64,000 nucleotides of DNA, taken from Minisyncoccota bacterium. Its GTDB lineage: Bacteria > Patescibacteriota > Minisyncoccia > Phycocordibacterales > Phycocordibacteraceae. Positions 25,936 through 36,156 of this stretch are shown here, piece after piece; within the stretch, counting starts at the first letter, position 1, and each line of letters opens with the position of its first letter. The position numbers and the translations under genes are program-made. The notes beneath the pieces are model-generated. The model had not been told where the DNA came from. It saw only the letters and a program-made list of their open reading frames with translations, and did not search any database. The stretch lies in the NCBI GenBank assembly GCA_041666305.1, contig JBAYHD010000001.1, positions 18,149-82,148 on the forward strand, read 5' to 3'.

Positions 25936-26198
25936 GACGCTTTCTTTACGCCCGGTATCTTCCCCTCGCGTGCGAGCTCGCGGAACTGGATGCGCGAAAG
26001 ACCGAAAGTGCGCATATAACCGCGAGAGCGACCGCTGATGGCACAGCGATTTTTCAGCCGAACAGGAGACGAATTCCTCGGAAGGGCTTGAAGGCCAGCA
26101 GAGTCACCGGCGGCTTTGAGGGCCGCGCGCTTGACTGCATATTTCGCTACGAGTTTCGTCTTTTTGACGAGTCGCGCGAGCTGGGATTTCTTTGCCAT
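25929..26198 (-). CDS. rpsN: 30S ribosomal protein S14 (long, non-zinc type)
   Basis: [32 protein letters not shown]...[42 protein letters not shown] 26198 preferred. Confidence 0.9.
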
Positions 26199-26322
26199 GT
26201 AAAAAATAAAGCCCCGAAGAGCGTGCAAGTAATGTATCACCTAGCTCCTACCCCGTCAAACCGACTGCTTTAGAAAACGGAAATCGCTCGGGTGGAGCAG
26301 TTTCCGCCGAGCGACTTGCTTT

Positions 26323-26637
26323 TTAGCCATCTAGGTTTGACATGCACGCAGCCCAGCTCGCCTGTCGCCGAGCAGGTTCGCCCAGTTCGAGAACTTCGCT
26401 ACCTATCGTGGTTTCGTATTCGTAGCCAGCGAGCTGTTCAAGTTCAAGGAGTGGGATGACCTCCTCGTTGATCGCCTTCAAGATCTCTGCAGGAATGGGC
26501 TTCCCTACTCCCTGAAAAATTACTGTCTCTTTCCCGCAACTGATCGTGCGATGCATTGTTACAGTCATGGTTTCAAGCTCAGTCGAGATGCCATTCTGTT
26601 TCAGAATGGCAAAGAACTTTCGATTGCTTCCCAACAT
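26323..26637 (-). CDS. hypothetical protein (first gene of the rpsN-rplE insertion)
   Basis: 104 aa. Good SD (aaggagga) 7 nt upstream of the ATG. No recognisable motif. Confidence 0.4.
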   Translation of the reverse strand: MLGSNRKFFAILKQNGISTELETMTVTMHRTISCGKETVIFQGVGKPIPAEILKAINEEVIPLLELEQLAGYEYETTIGSEVLELGEPARRQASWAACMSNLDG

Positions 26638-26795: not shown

Positions 26796-27377
26796 ATGGG
26801 GACAGTTGAAGTGGGGGCAAAAATAAAAAGAAGAAAGAGAGATCTGCGGAGTGCAGCGCTCATCACCATCGGTTTGGCCGGGACTATCGCCGTCGCCGCC
26901 GTTGCACCAAACATGTTCCAGCTCCTCGGAAAGACCGGTCTACTTACCCGTCTTAAGTATCGCAGTAAGGGAGTACTCGCTCGATTGAAGTACAAAGGCG
27001 AGATCGAATTTGTAGAAAAGAACGGGAAGAAATATGTACGACTAACCGACAAGGGTGAAAAAATGTTGGATCTCAATCGCGAGAAATTAAATCTAACGAA
27101 CAAGAAACCGAAAAGGTGGGATCGCCGATACCGGCTGGTCATGTTCGATATACCGGAGAAACGGAACAACATCCGCAAGCTCTTACGTTTTGAGATGCGG
27201 GAGATCGGTTTCTTGCGTATACAGGACAGCGTCTGGGTCTACCCTTTTGATTGCGAAGAGTTCATCACACTCCTTAAGGCGGACTTGCGGGTTGGTAAGG
27301 ATATTCTCTACGCAGTTGTAGAAGAAATAGAAAACGACAAGTGGATCCGCAAACACTTTAATCTACCCCTTAAATAA
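26796..27377 (+). CDS. PaaX-like winged-helix regulator family protein with Cas2-like beta-alpha-beta-beta motif (paralog 1)
   Basis: 193 aa. N-terminal hydrophobic helix, wHTH-like KYKGEIEFVEKNGKKYVRLTDKGEKML, then RWDRRYRLVMFDIPEKRNNIRKLLRFEMREIGFLRIQDSVWVYPFDCE. This pattern matches PaaX (WDGxWxLVxF...R..LRxxLxxxGFgxLQxSVWV) and the Cas2 YDV...KRR...G.RVQNSVF signature. Convergent with the r-protein genes. Confidence 0.55.
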   Translation: MGTVEVGAKIKRRKRDLRSAALITIGLAGTIAVAAVAPNMFQLLGKTGLLTRLKYRSKGVLARLKYKGEIEFVEKNGKKYVRLTDKGEKMLDLNREKLNLTNKKPKRWDRRYRLVMFDIPEKRNNIRKLLRFEMREIGFLRIQDSVWVYPFDCEEFITLLKADLRVGKDILYAVVEEIENDKWIRKHFNLPLK

Positions 27378-30782: not shown

Positions 30783-31133
30783 TTATTTCTTTGCGGGCGC
30801 GGCGGCGGTAGACTCCTTCGCCGACTTCGCAGATGCGATCTCAGCTTCAGCCTTTTTCGCCTCCATCTCCTTCTGCATCTTGCCGCCGTGGCGGAGGAAC
30901 TTCTTGGTCGGGGAAAATTCGCCGAGACGGTGTCCGACCATATCCTCATTCACGAGGACTTCAATATGAGACTTGCCGTTATGTACACCGAAGGTGAAGC
31001 CGATCATTTCTGGGCTTATCTGGCTGCGACGCGCCCAGGTCTTCACCACGCCCGCAGTGGCGGGTTTGAGGTTTTGGACTTTCTTGAGGAGTTTGGCGTC
31101 CACGAAGGGTCCTTTCTTTATCGAGCGTGACAT
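30783..31133 (-). CDS. rpsS: 30S ribosomal protein S19 (Lys/Ala-rich C-terminal extension)
   Basis: [20 protein letters not shown]...[35 protein letters not shown]. Confidence 0.93.
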
Positions 31134-31144
31134 AAAAGTAATGA

Positions 31145-31198
31145 AAAGCCCGCACTGCGGGATAGCTCAAAGATACAGGAAGTCATTTGCAAAGTCAA
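31145..31198 (-). promoter_or_regulatory. putative sigma70-like promoter (TTGACT-N17-TATCTT, minus strand) plus 5'-leader hairpin CUAUCCCGCAGUGCGGGCUUUU 11 nt upstream of the rpsS start codon
   Basis: Hexamers and hairpin read from the minus strand. A near-identical hairpin precedes rpsL at 42604..42626. Confidence 0.35.
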
Positions 31199-31352
31199 AC
31201 GTACCGTTCCAAAACACCCGCATAAATCCTAATCCGTTCCAGAACCTTGACAATTTCCAAAATGTGCACGTATTTTGCATTTCGTCGCGTGTTTGTTTTT
31301 TCTGTGCAATGGAGTACCCTCTACCTCGGACCCATTTGAGGAGGAACCGCAG

Positions 31353-31565
31353 ATGAAAATGAAGTACAAATTGGTATATATGCAGCCCCTGCCGCTGGAA
31401 GACGGCCAGAAACAGCCCAAGTATGAACGGAAGCAGGAGATCTTTGAAGTTGAGCCTGAGGAAGCGGAGGAGAAAAAAAGAAAGTTTCTCGGGGAAGAGT
31501 CGGTGACGTTCGGCTTCGTTACGTTCAGCCGAGAACAAATTACCTTCATGCCCACGCTCGTGTAG
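31353..31565 (+). CDS. small acidic hypothetical protein inserted (convergently) between rpsS and rplB
   Basis: 70 aa, MKMKYKLVYMQPLPLEDGQKQPKYERKQEIFEVEPEEAEEKKRKF. Strong SD gaggagga 8 nt upstream. Own promoter-like TTGACA-N18-TATTTT at 31247-31276. Own terminator downstream. Confidence 0.5.
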   Translation: MKMKYKLVYMQPLPLEDGQKQPKYERKQEIFEVEPEEAEEKKRKFLGEESVTFGFVTFSREQITFMPTLV

Positions 31566-31587
31566 GCAACCCGCCCACCGATGAACG

Positions 31588-31628
31588 AAAAGCCCGCCAA
31601 AACTTAGGCGGGCTTTATTTATTTTCGC
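31588..31628. terminator. bidirectional intrinsic terminator (aagcccgcc-aaaactta-ggcgggctt with T-runs on both strands) between the inserted small gene and the rplB 3' end
   Basis: Inverted repeat with flanking A/T runs. Confidence 0.65.
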
Positions 31629-31634
31629 TAAACG

Positions 31635-32483
31635 TTAGCCCTTCCGCTTCTTGCCGACCTTGCGGCGGGAGACGATGAAGACGTTTGAGTATTTCTTGGG
31701 AGTCCTCGTCTTCTGACCCTTGCCGGTGGGCTTGCCCCATTTGCTCTTGGCGCGGCGCAGACCGCGGCCCTGCTTGCCTTCGCCGCCGCCGTGCGGATGG
31801 TCTACCGGATTCATGGCGGTGCCGCGGACCGTCGGACGAATGCCGAGCCAGCGCGAACGACCAGCCTTGCCGATGACGACAAGATTGTATTCTTCGTTGC
31901 CCACCGCACCAATGGAGGCGTAACAGAGATCGGACACCTTGCGGATCTCGGTCGAAGGAAGCTTGATCTGCGCATAGCCGGCATCATGCGCGACTACCTC
32001 GGCATAATTGCCTGCACTGCGAACGAGAATGGCGCCTGCGGCCGGCTGGAGCTCGATGTTGTACACAAACGTACCGACGGGAATTTTCCCAAGCGGCATG
32101 CGGTTGCCGACCGTGAGCGGTGCATCTTCTCCGACGACGAAGGTGGAGCCGACTTTCATTTCTTTCGGGACGATAACGTAGCGGCGTTCGCCGTCGCGAT
32201 AGAGCGCGAGGCCGATAAATGCCGATCGGAACGGATCATACTCTACCGTTTCTATCTTCGCGGGAATGTTCTTCTTGTTGTAGGAAAAATCCACTTCGCG
32301 GAAACGCTTCTTGTGTCCGCCTCCCTGATGGCGTGTGGTGATGCGGCCGAAGCCGTTTCGCCCACCCTGGCTCGACTTCTTCTTGAGCAAAGGCTTGTGC
32401 GGTGCGTCACCCGAAAGAAGCTCCTTGTACGGAAGCGTGGTCATGTGGCGACGGCTCTTGCTGGTAGGTTTGTAGGTTTTCAT
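31635..32483 (-). CDS. rplB: 50S ribosomal protein L2
   Basis: 282 aa. MKTYKPTSKSRRHMT...GRNGFGRITTRHQGGGHKKRFREVDF... Confidence 0.95.
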   Translation of the reverse strand: MKTYKPTSKSRRHMTTLPYKELLSGDAPHKPLLKKKSSQGGRNGFGRITTRHQGGGHKKRFREVDFSYNKKNIPAKIETVEYDPFRSAFIGLALYRDGERRYVIVPKEMKVGSTFVVGEDAPLTVGNRMPLGKIPVGTFVYNIELQPAAGAILVRSAGNYAEVVAHDAGYAQIKLPSTEIRKVSDLCYASIGAVGNEEYNLVVIGKAGRSRWLGIRPTVRGTAMNPVDHPHGGGEGKQGRGLRRAKSKWGKPTGKGQKTRTPKKYSNVFIVSRRKVGKKRKG

Positions 32484-35032: not shown

Positions 35033-35072
35033 AAAAACACACAACCGCCTCTGCGGGCGGTTGTGTGTTTCT
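35033..35072 (-). terminator. intrinsic terminator, hairpin family ACACACAACCGCC-loop-GGCGGTTGTGTGT (minus strand followed by UUUUUGA); downstream of PaaX-like paralog 2
   Basis: Perfect 13-bp stem. A near-identical copy is at 36117..36156. Confidence 0.65.
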
Positions 35073-35129: not shown

Positions 35130-35744
35130 TTACTCTACTAGCGGGAGATTAAAATGCTTGCGGAGTTTTTCGTCGTGTTCTATCTCATCAGCGACTATAC
35201 AGAGAATACCGTGACCAAGTTTTAGATGCGTGCGCAAAAAGACAAGGAGTTTTTCACACGGATATGGATATGCCCATGCACTGTTCTGTACCTTAACGAA
35301 GCCGATTTCTCTGAGCGTCTCTCGTAATTCGTCACGCACTTCCCGTCGCCGCTCCCACACATCAAACATGATAATCCGCCACTTCTGATCCCATTTCTTC
35401 TGATTTTTAGGCCGCACTTCTTCGCGCTCTGCAAGTTCTTCGGCAATCTTCATCCCCTTCTCTGTTAGCTCTATATGAAAGCCGTTTTGCCCCTTCACTC
35501 GCCGAAATATACCCTGTTTAATCAGCTCAGAATATTTTTGACTCACGCGCCTCTTAAGACGAGGCGAAGGCCCAATGACTTTCTCTACATATTTGAGTAG
35601 TCTCACTGCGTTCGGCGCCATAACTATCAGACCTACTCCAATCGTGAGATACGCCGAGAGCAAAACAGCATTTTTAATTTTGGTGCGCTTTGTCCCGCGC
35701 TGAACCCTCTCCTCAATATTCAAGAGCCGTTTCTTTTTCTCCAT
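35130..35744 (-). CDS. PaaX-like wHTH regulator family protein with Cas2-like motif (paralog 2)
   Basis: 204 aa. GQNGFHIELTEKGMKIAEEL (wHTH wing), KKWDQKWRIIMFDVWERRREVRDELRETLREIGFVKVQNSAWAYPYPCE, C-terminal ...DEKLRKHFNLPL shared with paralog 1. Clearly homologous to 26796..27377. Confidence 0.55.
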   Translation of the reverse strand: MEKKKRLLNIEERVQRGTKRTKIKNAVLLSAYLTIGVGLIVMAPNAVRLLKYVEKVIGPSPRLKRRVSQKYSELIKQGIFRRVKGQNGFHIELTEKGMKIAEELAEREEVRPKNQKKWDQKWRIIMFDVWERRREVRDELRETLREIGFVKVQNSAWAYPYPCEKLLVFLRTHLKLGHGILCIVADEIEHDEKLRKHFNLPLVE

Positions 35745-35890: not shown

Positions 35891-36082
35891 TCAGCTGCAT
35901 CCGTGCGGCGAAGGCCGACCAATCGGATGTTTCTCGATTTCATCACCCATTTCTGCCCAGTAACAATCGGCATGCACCGCAACCTTTTGACCTTCGACGA
36001 CAATGTACTCCAACTCCCCTTCAATATGTGGTCCGTCGATTAAATCATGACATATGCCGCAATAAACCGAACTTAGATCCAT
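35891..36082 (-). CDS. small Cys/His-rich (zinc-ribbon-like) hypothetical protein
   Basis: 63 aa from ATG 36082: MDLSSVYCGICHDLIDGPHIEGELEYIVVEGQKVAVHADCYWAEM. SD aaggaggg upstream. Confidence 0.45.
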   Translation of the reverse strand: MDLSSVYCGICHDLIDGPHIEGELEYIVVEGQKVAVHADCYWAEMGDEIEKHPIGRPSPHGCS

Positions 36083-36116: not shown

Positions 36117-36156
36117 TAAAACACACAACCGCCCGTGAGGGCGGTTGTGTGTTTCT
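36117..36156 (-). terminator. second copy of the ACACACAACCGCCC-gtga-GGGCGGTTGTGTGT hairpin terminator, ~140 nt downstream of rpsJ
   Basis: Near-identical to 35033..35072, including flanking TTCTTG(G/C). Confidence 0.65.

Follow-up and report, generated by a model that had tools for sequence, protein, structure and literature searches.

Comparison of the str-S10-spc ribosomal gene cluster on a 64,000-nucleotide stretch of a Minisyncoccota genome (contig JBAYHD010000001.1, hereafter the window) with related loci suggests that the junction between rplB and rpsS in the S10 operon is very probably a fixed operon break of a Kaiserbacteria-like clade, and that the small open reading frame (ORF) lying in it, designated ORF70, is one of several alternative cargo genes. 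The cluster occupies the minus strand of the window (GC content 0.54) between rpsL (~42.6 kb) and map (~20.7 kb). The final gene of the upstream transcription unit rplC-rplD-rplW-rplB is rplB, encoding ribosomal protein L2 (31635..32483, minus strand; a 282-amino-acid ORF, with Pfam Ribosomal_L2_N/C on the identical gene in locus L001), and the downstream unit rpsS-rplV-rpsC-rplP-rpmC-rpsQ-rplN-rplX-rplE is opened by rpsS, encoding S19 (30783..31133, minus strand; a 116-amino-acid ORF, with Pfam Ribosomal_S19 on the identical gene in L001). The separation of the two genes, to which an earlier sequence-only reading had drawn attention, measures 501 bp (31134..31634) between the rplB stop at 31635 and the rpsS ATG at 31133. 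As the closest species representatives in GTDB, metagenome-assembled genomes of Candidatus Kaiserbacteria and Paceibacterota, have RplB only 63-71% identical to that of the window, the host is regarded as a Kaiserbacteria-like member of the Patescibacteria, also known as the Candidate Phyla Radiation (CPR). The whole window contains zero tRNA or tmRNA genes and gave 0 Rfam matches at gathering thresholds.

How far the rpsS start codon lies from the rplB stop codon was measured in RplB relatives from 185,579 species genomes and RpsS relatives from metagenome contigs. Wherever RplB reaches at least 62% identity with that of the window, in 22 of 22 loci, the gap measures 70-1493 bp (median ~700 bp). 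The 44 metagenome relatives that are more distant, and that probably represent other CPR lineages, have gaps of -1 to 222 bp with a median of ~12 bp; for the 59 species outside the CPR the range is -1 to 113 bp and the median ~24 bp. The two genes are adjacent in all 103 loci examined outside the clade, where the gap is at most ~220 bp and usually below 40. Even among relatives with RplB 88-92% identical the gap varies from 70 to 1400 bp. At the lower end, the 70 bp of locus L103 consist of the rpsS promoter and hairpin only, with no further terminator between rplB and rpsS; three "empty" loci (L087, L092 and L093) have ~190-210 bp, in which a terminator is followed directly by the promoter region; and the 800-1400 bp of other close relatives contain other genes. 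Since the three empty loci hold only terminator and promoters, and others hold unrelated cargo, the split was not caused by ORF70. Judged from these sequence comparisons, it is ancestral, clade-wide and older than ORF70. The sequence-only reading had described the operon as split around ORF70 and had called such a split unexpected in the core ribosomal operon. The comparison of synteny in related genomes finds the split throughout the clade and supports the break between transcription units, but not ORF70 as its cause, the empty relatives being split as well; and the arrangement, although unexpected for bacteria in general, is the rule in the Kaiserbacteria-like clade.

The genes that occupy the gap, identified by Pfam, differ widely. 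MazE together with PemK/MazF is found in L004, MazE-like together with ParE-like proteins in L018, SAICAR synthetase (SAICAR_synt, purC) on the opposite strand in L016, diacylglycerol kinase (DAGK) in L011, a DUF5674 protein in L012, a DUF3298 protein in L088 and L089, an IS4/5 transposase (DUF4096 + DDE_Tnp_1) in L086, and a 1007-amino-acid repeat protein with an IS200-like transposase (Y1_Tnp) in L015, while several further loci contain gap ORFs belonging to no family. The varied and unrelated nature of these occupants indicates that the junction is a permissive hotspot, of which ORF70 is one occupant. No meaningful flanking direct or inverted repeats and no mobile-element signatures were found around the ORF70 cassette.

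A pattern scan located a predicted promoter of the sigma70 type, P2, upstream of rpsS (31170..31198, minus strand), with -35 TTGACT (31198..31193), a 17-nt spacer and -10 TATCTT (31175..31170), matching at 9 of the 12 hexamer positions; its transcription start site (TSS) is predicted to be the A at ~31163 of the minus strand. Both P2 and the ORF70 promoter described below combine near-consensus hexamers with a spacer of 16-18 nt in which the sequence drifts. The rpsS 5' leader (31134..31161, minus strand) opens, ~2 nt from the predicted 5' end, with the hairpin CCCGC-AGU-GCGGG (31161..31149; -7.5 kcal/mol), after which comes the U-rich tract CUUUUCAUUACUUUU lacking a Shine-Dalgarno sequence; the segment downstream of the hairpin reads CTTTTCATTACTTTT, directly followed by the rpsS ATG at 31133. 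Apart from loop bases, the leader segment is invariant in L002, L003, L084 and L166. The P2 hexamers and the hairpin-to-ATG segment are unchanged in L084, where the 17-nt spacer is entirely different, and P2 is kept in L103 even though its whole gap amounts to 70 bp.

The same architecture recurs over a wider range of relatives. In 27 distinct leaders, taken from relatives with RpsS 61-100% identical, TTGACN-N16/17-TAnnnT is present upstream of rpsS; in 26 of the 27 a 4-8-bp hairpin begins 5-9 nt past the -10 element (~+1 to +3 of the predicted transcript) and is followed within 8 nt by at least four U (at least five in 25), and the A/U-rich tract runs on to the ATG without a Shine-Dalgarno sequence. 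The stems comprise at least 15 sequences, including CCCGC, CCGC, CUCGCG, GCUC, GAGCUC, ACGCC, GGCUCG, UUGCCG and UGAGCC. Because the MAFFT alignment shifted the CCGC-type stems by one column against the CCCGC-type stems, the hairpins were judged by per-sequence folding and shuffles and not by alignment covariation, which gave a mean z of -2.3 against the shuffles. The 92-nt RNA upstream of rpsS is as a whole no stabler than its shuffles (z = -0.31). The suggestion that a separate promoter and leader hairpin restart rpsS is supported by these sequence comparisons, the hexamers and the hairpin being conserved where the spacer has diverged.

As the promoter precedes the hairpin and ten essential genes follow it, the stems are short and the U/A-richness reaches the ATG, the hairpin presumably acts as a 5'-terminal mRNA stabiliser and the U-rich tract as a ribosome landing site that needs no Shine-Dalgarno sequence. 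Alternatively, hairpin and U-tract could form an attenuator, or a terminator insulating rpsS against read-through from rplB or from antisense cargo, possibly under the control of a ribosomal protein. Such a role would suit the terminator-like pattern of a GC stem followed by at least five T in 8 nt, the U-run that abuts the stem in 26 of the 27 leaders, and L103, which has no other terminator between rplB and rpsS; however, efficient termination downstream of a conserved promoter would silence the ten genes, the stems are weak (4-8 bp, -5 to -11 kcal/mol), the U/A-richness up to the ATG fits an unstructured initiation region without Shine-Dalgarno sequence, the ~30-nt leader leaves no space for alternative structures, and no Rfam leader model matches. 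An attenuator or insulator is therefore considered unlikely, and the stabiliser with its landing site is preferred.

Two other readings of the region were rejected. Long-range pairing of the leader hairpin with a hairpin at rpsS codons 24-28 (inverted repeat I1) was discarded since the stems do not co-vary between lineages, and a leader peptide or other coding function of the conserved stretch 31134-31255 was discarded owing to a 1-nt indel there in L003. The codon 24-28 hairpin itself (31051-31064, encoding KPATAG) reads CCCGC-CACU-GCGGG and resembles the leader hairpin. Its single pair free of amino-acid constraint changes in a compensatory manner, to CCUGC/GCAGG in L092 and CCGGC/GCCGG in L084, L088, L089 and L166, and remoter members of the split clade also fold a hairpin at these codons, for example with a GAAA tetraloop in L109; a conserved mRNA structure may thus exist inside rpsS. 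Furthermore, the segment 30872-31250, comprising the N-terminal two thirds of rpsS and 120 nt upstream, is 95-100% identical to L002 and L003, as compared with 75-85% for its flanks (rplV, the C-terminal extension of rpsS, ORF70 and rplB), and the synonymous divergence (dS) of the rpsS 5' part is 0.15-0.34 versus 0.8-1.3 for the rplB 3' end. Since rpsS synonymous sites vary in the more distant L084, recent recombination among the close lineages, or a local constraint, is possible. A restart architecture of the rpsS type is also seen at rpsN, past the interruption between rplE and rpsN (26198-26259, minus strand), where TTGACG-N17-TACATT precedes a GCUC-UUCG-GGGC hairpin (with a UUCG tetraloop), followed by UUUAUUUUUUAC and AUG.

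Upstream of P2, the rpsS control region contains a 55-bp module (31199..31253, minus strand) that reads TTGTCAAGGTTCTG...TAGGAT-TTATG(C/A)GGGTGTTTTGG, also written TTGTCAAGGTTCTG...TAGGATTTATG(C/A)GGGTGTTTTGG. The module occurs as a single copy in the window and is kept in L084, L086-L090, L092, L093 and L166, irrespective of the presence of ORF70, but is absent from L091, L096 and L103. It may represent a second promoter, P1 (TTGTCA-N16-TAGGAT), or the site of a regulator; some relatives have TAGGAA or CAGGAT as the -10 element of P1, and the P1 spacer is conserved over half its length. The near-palindromic TTGTCAA of the module doubles on the opposite strand as the -35 element of the ORF70 promoter, so that ORF70 and rpsS are arranged back-to-back around one control region, and ORF70 lies precisely in the interval bounded by the terminator and by the conserved start TTGTCAAGG... 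of that region. A direct repeat, CCGTTCCA(A/G)AAC, is found at 31204-31215 and 31234-31245, spaced 30 nt, between the two divergent -35 elements; it is partly retained in L084 as CCGCTCCA / CCGTTTCA and may be a transcription-factor site.

At the other end of the gap, a predicted bidirectional intrinsic terminator (31589..31626, hairpin 31589-31616) is common to ORF70 on the plus strand and rplB on the minus strand. The GC-rich stem of 10 bp, AAAGCCCGCC/GGCGGGCTTT, carries the tail TTTATTTATTTT on the plus strand and TTTTCGTT on the minus strand, and folds with -21.5 kcal/mol (z = -3.75 on the plus and -3.70 on the minus strand). The element is 91-96% identical in L002 and L003, and in L084 a G-C pair of its stem is replaced by A-T in a compensatory manner. 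A GC-rich stem-loop followed by a U-tract, as expected of an intrinsic terminator, is thereby present, the U-tract of the minus strand being weak; since TTTTCGTT follows the hairpin on that strand, it can serve rplB too, probably less efficiently. A permissive Rfam scan of 30950-31700 yielded only sub-threshold generic terminator-like models on the 31589-31616 hairpin. Hairpin, tails on both strands and the compensatory stem change agree with the bidirectional terminator that had been placed right after the rplB stop.

ORF70 (31353..31565, plus strand) encodes 70 amino acids, begins with MKMKYKLVYMQPLPL, ends with TLV, includes the peptides LVYMQPLPLEDGQK and QEIFEVEPEEAEEK, and is convergent to rplB. 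Its Shine-Dalgarno sequence, GAGGAGGA (31339..31346, plus strand), was read from the sequence 6 nt upstream of the ATG, and its predicted promoter (31247..31276, plus strand) consists of -35 TTGACA (31247-52), an 18-nt spacer and -10 TATTTT (31271-76), which match at 10 of the 12 hexamer positions and form the top promoter-like match in an 11-kb scan; the TSS is predicted at ~31279-31283 of the plus strand. In gap alignments of four lineages used for footprinting, -35 TTGACA and the -10 block GTATTTTGCAT are kept in L002 and L003, with a spacer that is 54% identical, and the promoter of L084 and L166 is TTGACA-N16-TATGCT, in which the -35 is kept and the -10 differs. The 46-nt 5' untranslated region (5'UTR) has drifted to 54-61% identity; in L002 and L003 the Shine-Dalgarno block GACCCATTTGAGGAGGAA shows no change, and L084 and L166 retain GGAGG. 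The retention of hexamers, Shine-Dalgarno sequence, ORF and hairpins while spacers and 5'UTR drift points to conservation of these features beyond chance.

Three close sequences allowed the ratio of nonsynonymous to synonymous divergence (dN/dS, Nei-Gojobori/NG86) to be calculated. It is 0.09-0.16 in the ORF70 frame and ~0.8-2.2 in four of the five alternative frames; the antisense frame that shares the wobble positions of ORF70 gives 0.18-0.38, as is expected from that sharing. The dS of ORF70 (0.7-1.2) equals that of the adjoining rplB 3' end, the differences at codon positions 1/2/3 number 7/7/18, 7/8/26 and 8/10/20, and the alignment has two indels, of 6 nt each and both in frame. ORF70 is, by this pattern of divergence, a genuine protein gene under purifying selection. 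It could still be asked whether the ORF is spurious and the gap regulatory DNA alone, made up of terminator and promoters, for which L087, L092 and L093 need only 190-210 bp, and chance ORFs in other frames of the gap reach 123 amino acids. This is extremely improbable in view of the frame-specific dN/dS, the in-frame indels and the conserved Shine-Dalgarno sequence, as well as homologues that are 32-41% identical with a common core and a confidently predicted fold (predicted local distance difference test, pLDDT, 91). The minus-strand ORFs of 123 amino acids across the gap were rejected as genes, having a dN/dS of ~1-1.6, or 0.18-0.38 in the wobble-sharing frame, and stops in L003.

Homologues of ORF70 are few and are all found at the same place. 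A search of 5.8 billion proteins returned ORF70 itself and two relatives (82-84% identical), one more member (37% identical) came from exhaustive HMMER scanning of 1.84 billion representatives, and a profile search raised the family to seven distinct members (homologues P0002-P0007), the distant ones of which, 32-41% identical, retain a common core. All seven adjoin the 3' end of rplB and are convergent to it. A scan of metagenome contigs with the ORF70 alignment recovered no relative, source contig included, and a second scan was therefore run with RpsS. Of the properties ascribed to ORF70 by the sequence-only reading, the mini-gene with its Shine-Dalgarno sequence and TTGACA-N18-TATTTT promoter is present where it had been placed, its description as a self-contained convergent gene is corroborated by the frame-specific purifying selection and by homologues at the same position, and the homology search that had been proposed revealed a family of seven whose members keep the small ORF. 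"Acidic" applies only mildly to the protein itself (isoelectric point, pI, 5.5; 13 D+E against 12 K+R) and is not a trait of the family (pI 5.2-10.6).

The ribosomal-protein genes between 20.6 and 42.6 kb lack Shine-Dalgarno sequences and have an upstream TAA-TAnT-ATG style, while the small inserted ORFs, namely ORF70, a 104-amino-acid ORF (26323..26637) and ORFs starting near 36064 and 38380, carry a strong GGAGG. In L167 (86-274), and also in L090, a 62-amino-acid ORF with its own GGAGG lies 9 nt upstream of the ORF70 homologue, forming a two-gene cassette; the encoded protein has two CxxC pairs, resembling a zinc ribbon, and no Pfam match.

In another reading ORF70 is selfish or defence-type cargo, for example an orphan antitoxin-like, anti-toxin or anti-phage gene, that persists at a permissive site and has no role in the ribosome or in transcription. 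The MazE/PemK and MazE/ParE pairs and the IS elements in the same gap of relatives would fit this, as would the position of the homologue as second gene behind the CxxC...CxxC protein in L167 and L090 and its fast evolution, ORF70 being 32-41% identical where RpsS is 85-93% identical. Yet no member has a PADLOC, PHROG or Pfam match, ORF70 is a partnerless single gene in the window, the cassette is without flanking repeats or mobility signatures, and a dN/dS of ~0.1 together with retention at one locus in several lineages suggests vertical inheritance of a useful gene. Selfish or defence-type cargo is accordingly regarded as rather improbable. A type II toxin-antitoxin system was likewise not recognised, as ORF70 stands alone in the window and no member matches Pfam or PADLOC, and ORF70 lacks the broad conservation, the known ribosomal protein family and the co-directional position of a bacterial ribosomal protein.

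The AlphaFold2 (AF2) model of the ORF70 protein, built with just 7 sequences, has a pLDDT of 91.3 and a predicted template modelling (TM) score, pTM, of 0.74 and shows a compact domain with the element order beta(3-12)-beta(24-33)-alpha(35-48)-beta-beta-beta. Searches with Pfam, PADLOC and PHROGs gave nothing for ORF70 or its family members (Pfam, 0 families at E <= 1), a sequence-profile search of the PDB produced noise only (E >= 1.5) and did not return YkzG at E <= 10, and a fold search of BFVD gave only uncharacterised phage proteins. Foldseek comparison with 350,542 PDB chains ranked YkzG of G. stearothermophilus (4njc_A) first, with a Foldseek probability of 0.97, TM-scores of 0.55/0.62 over 70 columns and a weak E-value of 0.2, and no PDB match reached E <= 0.001. 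Alignment with hhalign to 22 epsilon sequences covered beta1-beta2-alpha1 in 43 columns (P = 0.034, probability 1.5%), and to 3 epsilon sequences gave P = 0.055, the hhalign probabilities being 1-1.5% overall. These results raise the possibility that ORF70 is the CPR counterpart of the epsilon subunit of RNA polymerase (YkzG/RpoY of Firmicutes, with the fold of phage T7 Gp2), in which case it would bind RNA polymerase and not be neutral cargo. Besides the Foldseek rank, the hhalign motifs (M)xYK[LV]xYxQ and YE[RK]K..I.E...E match and the sizes are alike (69 versus 70 amino acids). Against the relationship stand the E-value and hhalign probabilities just given, the lack of a match to PF07288 (RpoY/DUF1447) at E <= 1 and of any PDB sequence match, the C-terminal beta-meander, which is left unaligned, and the patchy occurrence of ORF70 even where RplB is ~90% identical, which would be odd in a core polymerase subunit. 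Identity with epsilon is thus quite unlikely, and the modelled resemblance to epsilon and Gp2 is taken as a lead and not as membership, for which the chances appear small. Tentatively, ORF70 may be a small accessory factor that binds proteins or nucleic acids, with transcription or translation as its most plausible setting.

The following organisation of the junction is proposed. Transcription of rplC-rplD-rplW-rplB would end at the hairpin just past rplB, the sequence and conservation of which are described above. The rpsS gene and nine further genes would be re-initiated from the sigma70-type promoter TTGACT-17-TATCTT, with the 5' hairpin and U-rich leader whose architecture is found in 26 of the 27 leaders. 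Insertions are tolerated in the DNA that separates the terminator from the promoter region, where different lineages have toxin-antitoxin pairs, metabolic genes, IS elements or no gene at all, and the cargo here and in six related lineages is ORF70, which points at rplB and would reuse the rplB terminator in the reverse direction. On account of the shared -35 face, the strong Shine-Dalgarno sequence and the reused terminator, ORF70 is probably expressed back-to-back with rpsS. Several points weigh against this organisation. The promoter and terminator calls all rest on sequence and conservation, and some read-through from rplB is possible because the T-run of the terminator on the minus strand (TTTTCGTT) is short. 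The leader hairpin followed by U's resembles an intrinsic terminator, so that a role as attenuator or insulator is possible, and a simple promoter does not account for the 55-bp module, half of the spacer being conserved. In addition, the ORF70 family is tiny, with 7 members of which just 3 are close enough for dN/dS, and no significant homology supports a function for the protein.

A more far-reaching proposal is that the ORF70 family constitutes a new Gp2/epsilon-like RNA-polymerase-binding protein of Kaiserbacteria-like CPR bacteria, transcribed back-to-back with rpsS from a common control region, and that the rplB|rpsS break, together with the conserved 55-bp module and the 5' hairpin leader, is a dedicated regulatory node and not a passive insertion site; this is considered decidedly unlikely, but if true, it would link the amount of ORF70 to ribosome synthesis. 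Few bacterial gene arrangements are as conserved as the S10 operon, yet a whole clade of ultra-small CPR bacteria broke one of its junctions, which offers a sequence-defined model for the rewiring of essential operons in reduced genomes. The promoter, leader and terminator motifs could sharpen the prediction of operons and TSSs in uncultured Patescibacteria, and ORF70, having a confident fold, being selected and being tied to the junction, lends itself to study as a possible lineage-specific factor in transcription or translation.

Two paralogous genes with PaaX_M (Cas2-like) and winged-helix domains fill the other two interruptions of the cluster, between rplE and rpsN (26796..27377, plus strand) and between rpsJ and rplC (35130..35744, minus strand), and could be regulators. 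The PaaX-like gene between rpsJ and rplC is bracketed by two copies, 1084 bp apart, of the perfect palindrome AAACACACAACCGCCC...GGGCGGTTGTGTGTTT (35035-35070 and 36119-36154), the half-sites of which have 4 matches against 0.05 expected; the pair may represent duplicated terminators or a cassette boundary.

Insertion of accessory genes into the otherwise highly syntenic ribosomal cluster has been described for Gammaproteobacteria and Bacilli, where the insertions analysed in detail lie mostly between operons, e.g. tusDCB and bfd-bfr; nrdHEF, which lies inside rpoBC, is an exception (PMC8046335). The present junction is similar to those cases in that, once a gene has been inserted, synteny at the junction relaxes and more changes occur there, but differs in that the break is inside the S10 operon, is fixed in a clade, has its own conserved promoter and leader, and holds variable cargo. 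Full-text literature searches gave no account of an interruption of the S10 operon in CPR/Patescibacteria. Like chromosomal integration hotspots, the junction combines identical core flanks with unrelated occupants (toxin-antitoxin modules, IS elements, metabolic genes, orphan ORFs, or none); unlike them, it is flanked by two core genes of the S10 operon, direct neighbours in the other 103 loci examined, and no integrase, att repeats or tRNA were found. With RNA polymerase epsilon (YkzG/RpoY, PF07288) and the T7 Gp2 fold, ORF70 shares a soluble protein of ~70 amino acids, the top Foldseek match and an N-terminal beta-beta-alpha unit that aligns, but there is no significant sequence or profile match, ORF70 belongs to another phylum and gene context, and binding of RNA polymerase is hypothetical. 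Stem-loops at the 5' terminus stabilise mRNAs of the E. coli ompA and B. subtilis aprE type. The rpsS hairpin resembles these in its position, within ~2-3 nt of where a highly expressed mRNA is predicted to begin, and differs in that its TSS is a predicted one, that a U-rich tract and a start codon without Shine-Dalgarno sequence always follow, and that it is terminator-like. The S10 leader of E. coli is subject to L4-mediated attenuation and likewise has a terminator-like hairpin that follows the promoter and precedes the leading gene in a ribosomal-protein unit, whereas the ~30-nt rpsS leader has a single short hairpin, precedes rpsS instead of rpsJ and has no Rfam match. Operon-splitting insertions, internal promoters and terminators, and hotspots are known kinds of element, and what appears to be new at the rplB|rpsS junction is the orphan protein family together with a defined motif of promoter and 5'-hairpin leader.

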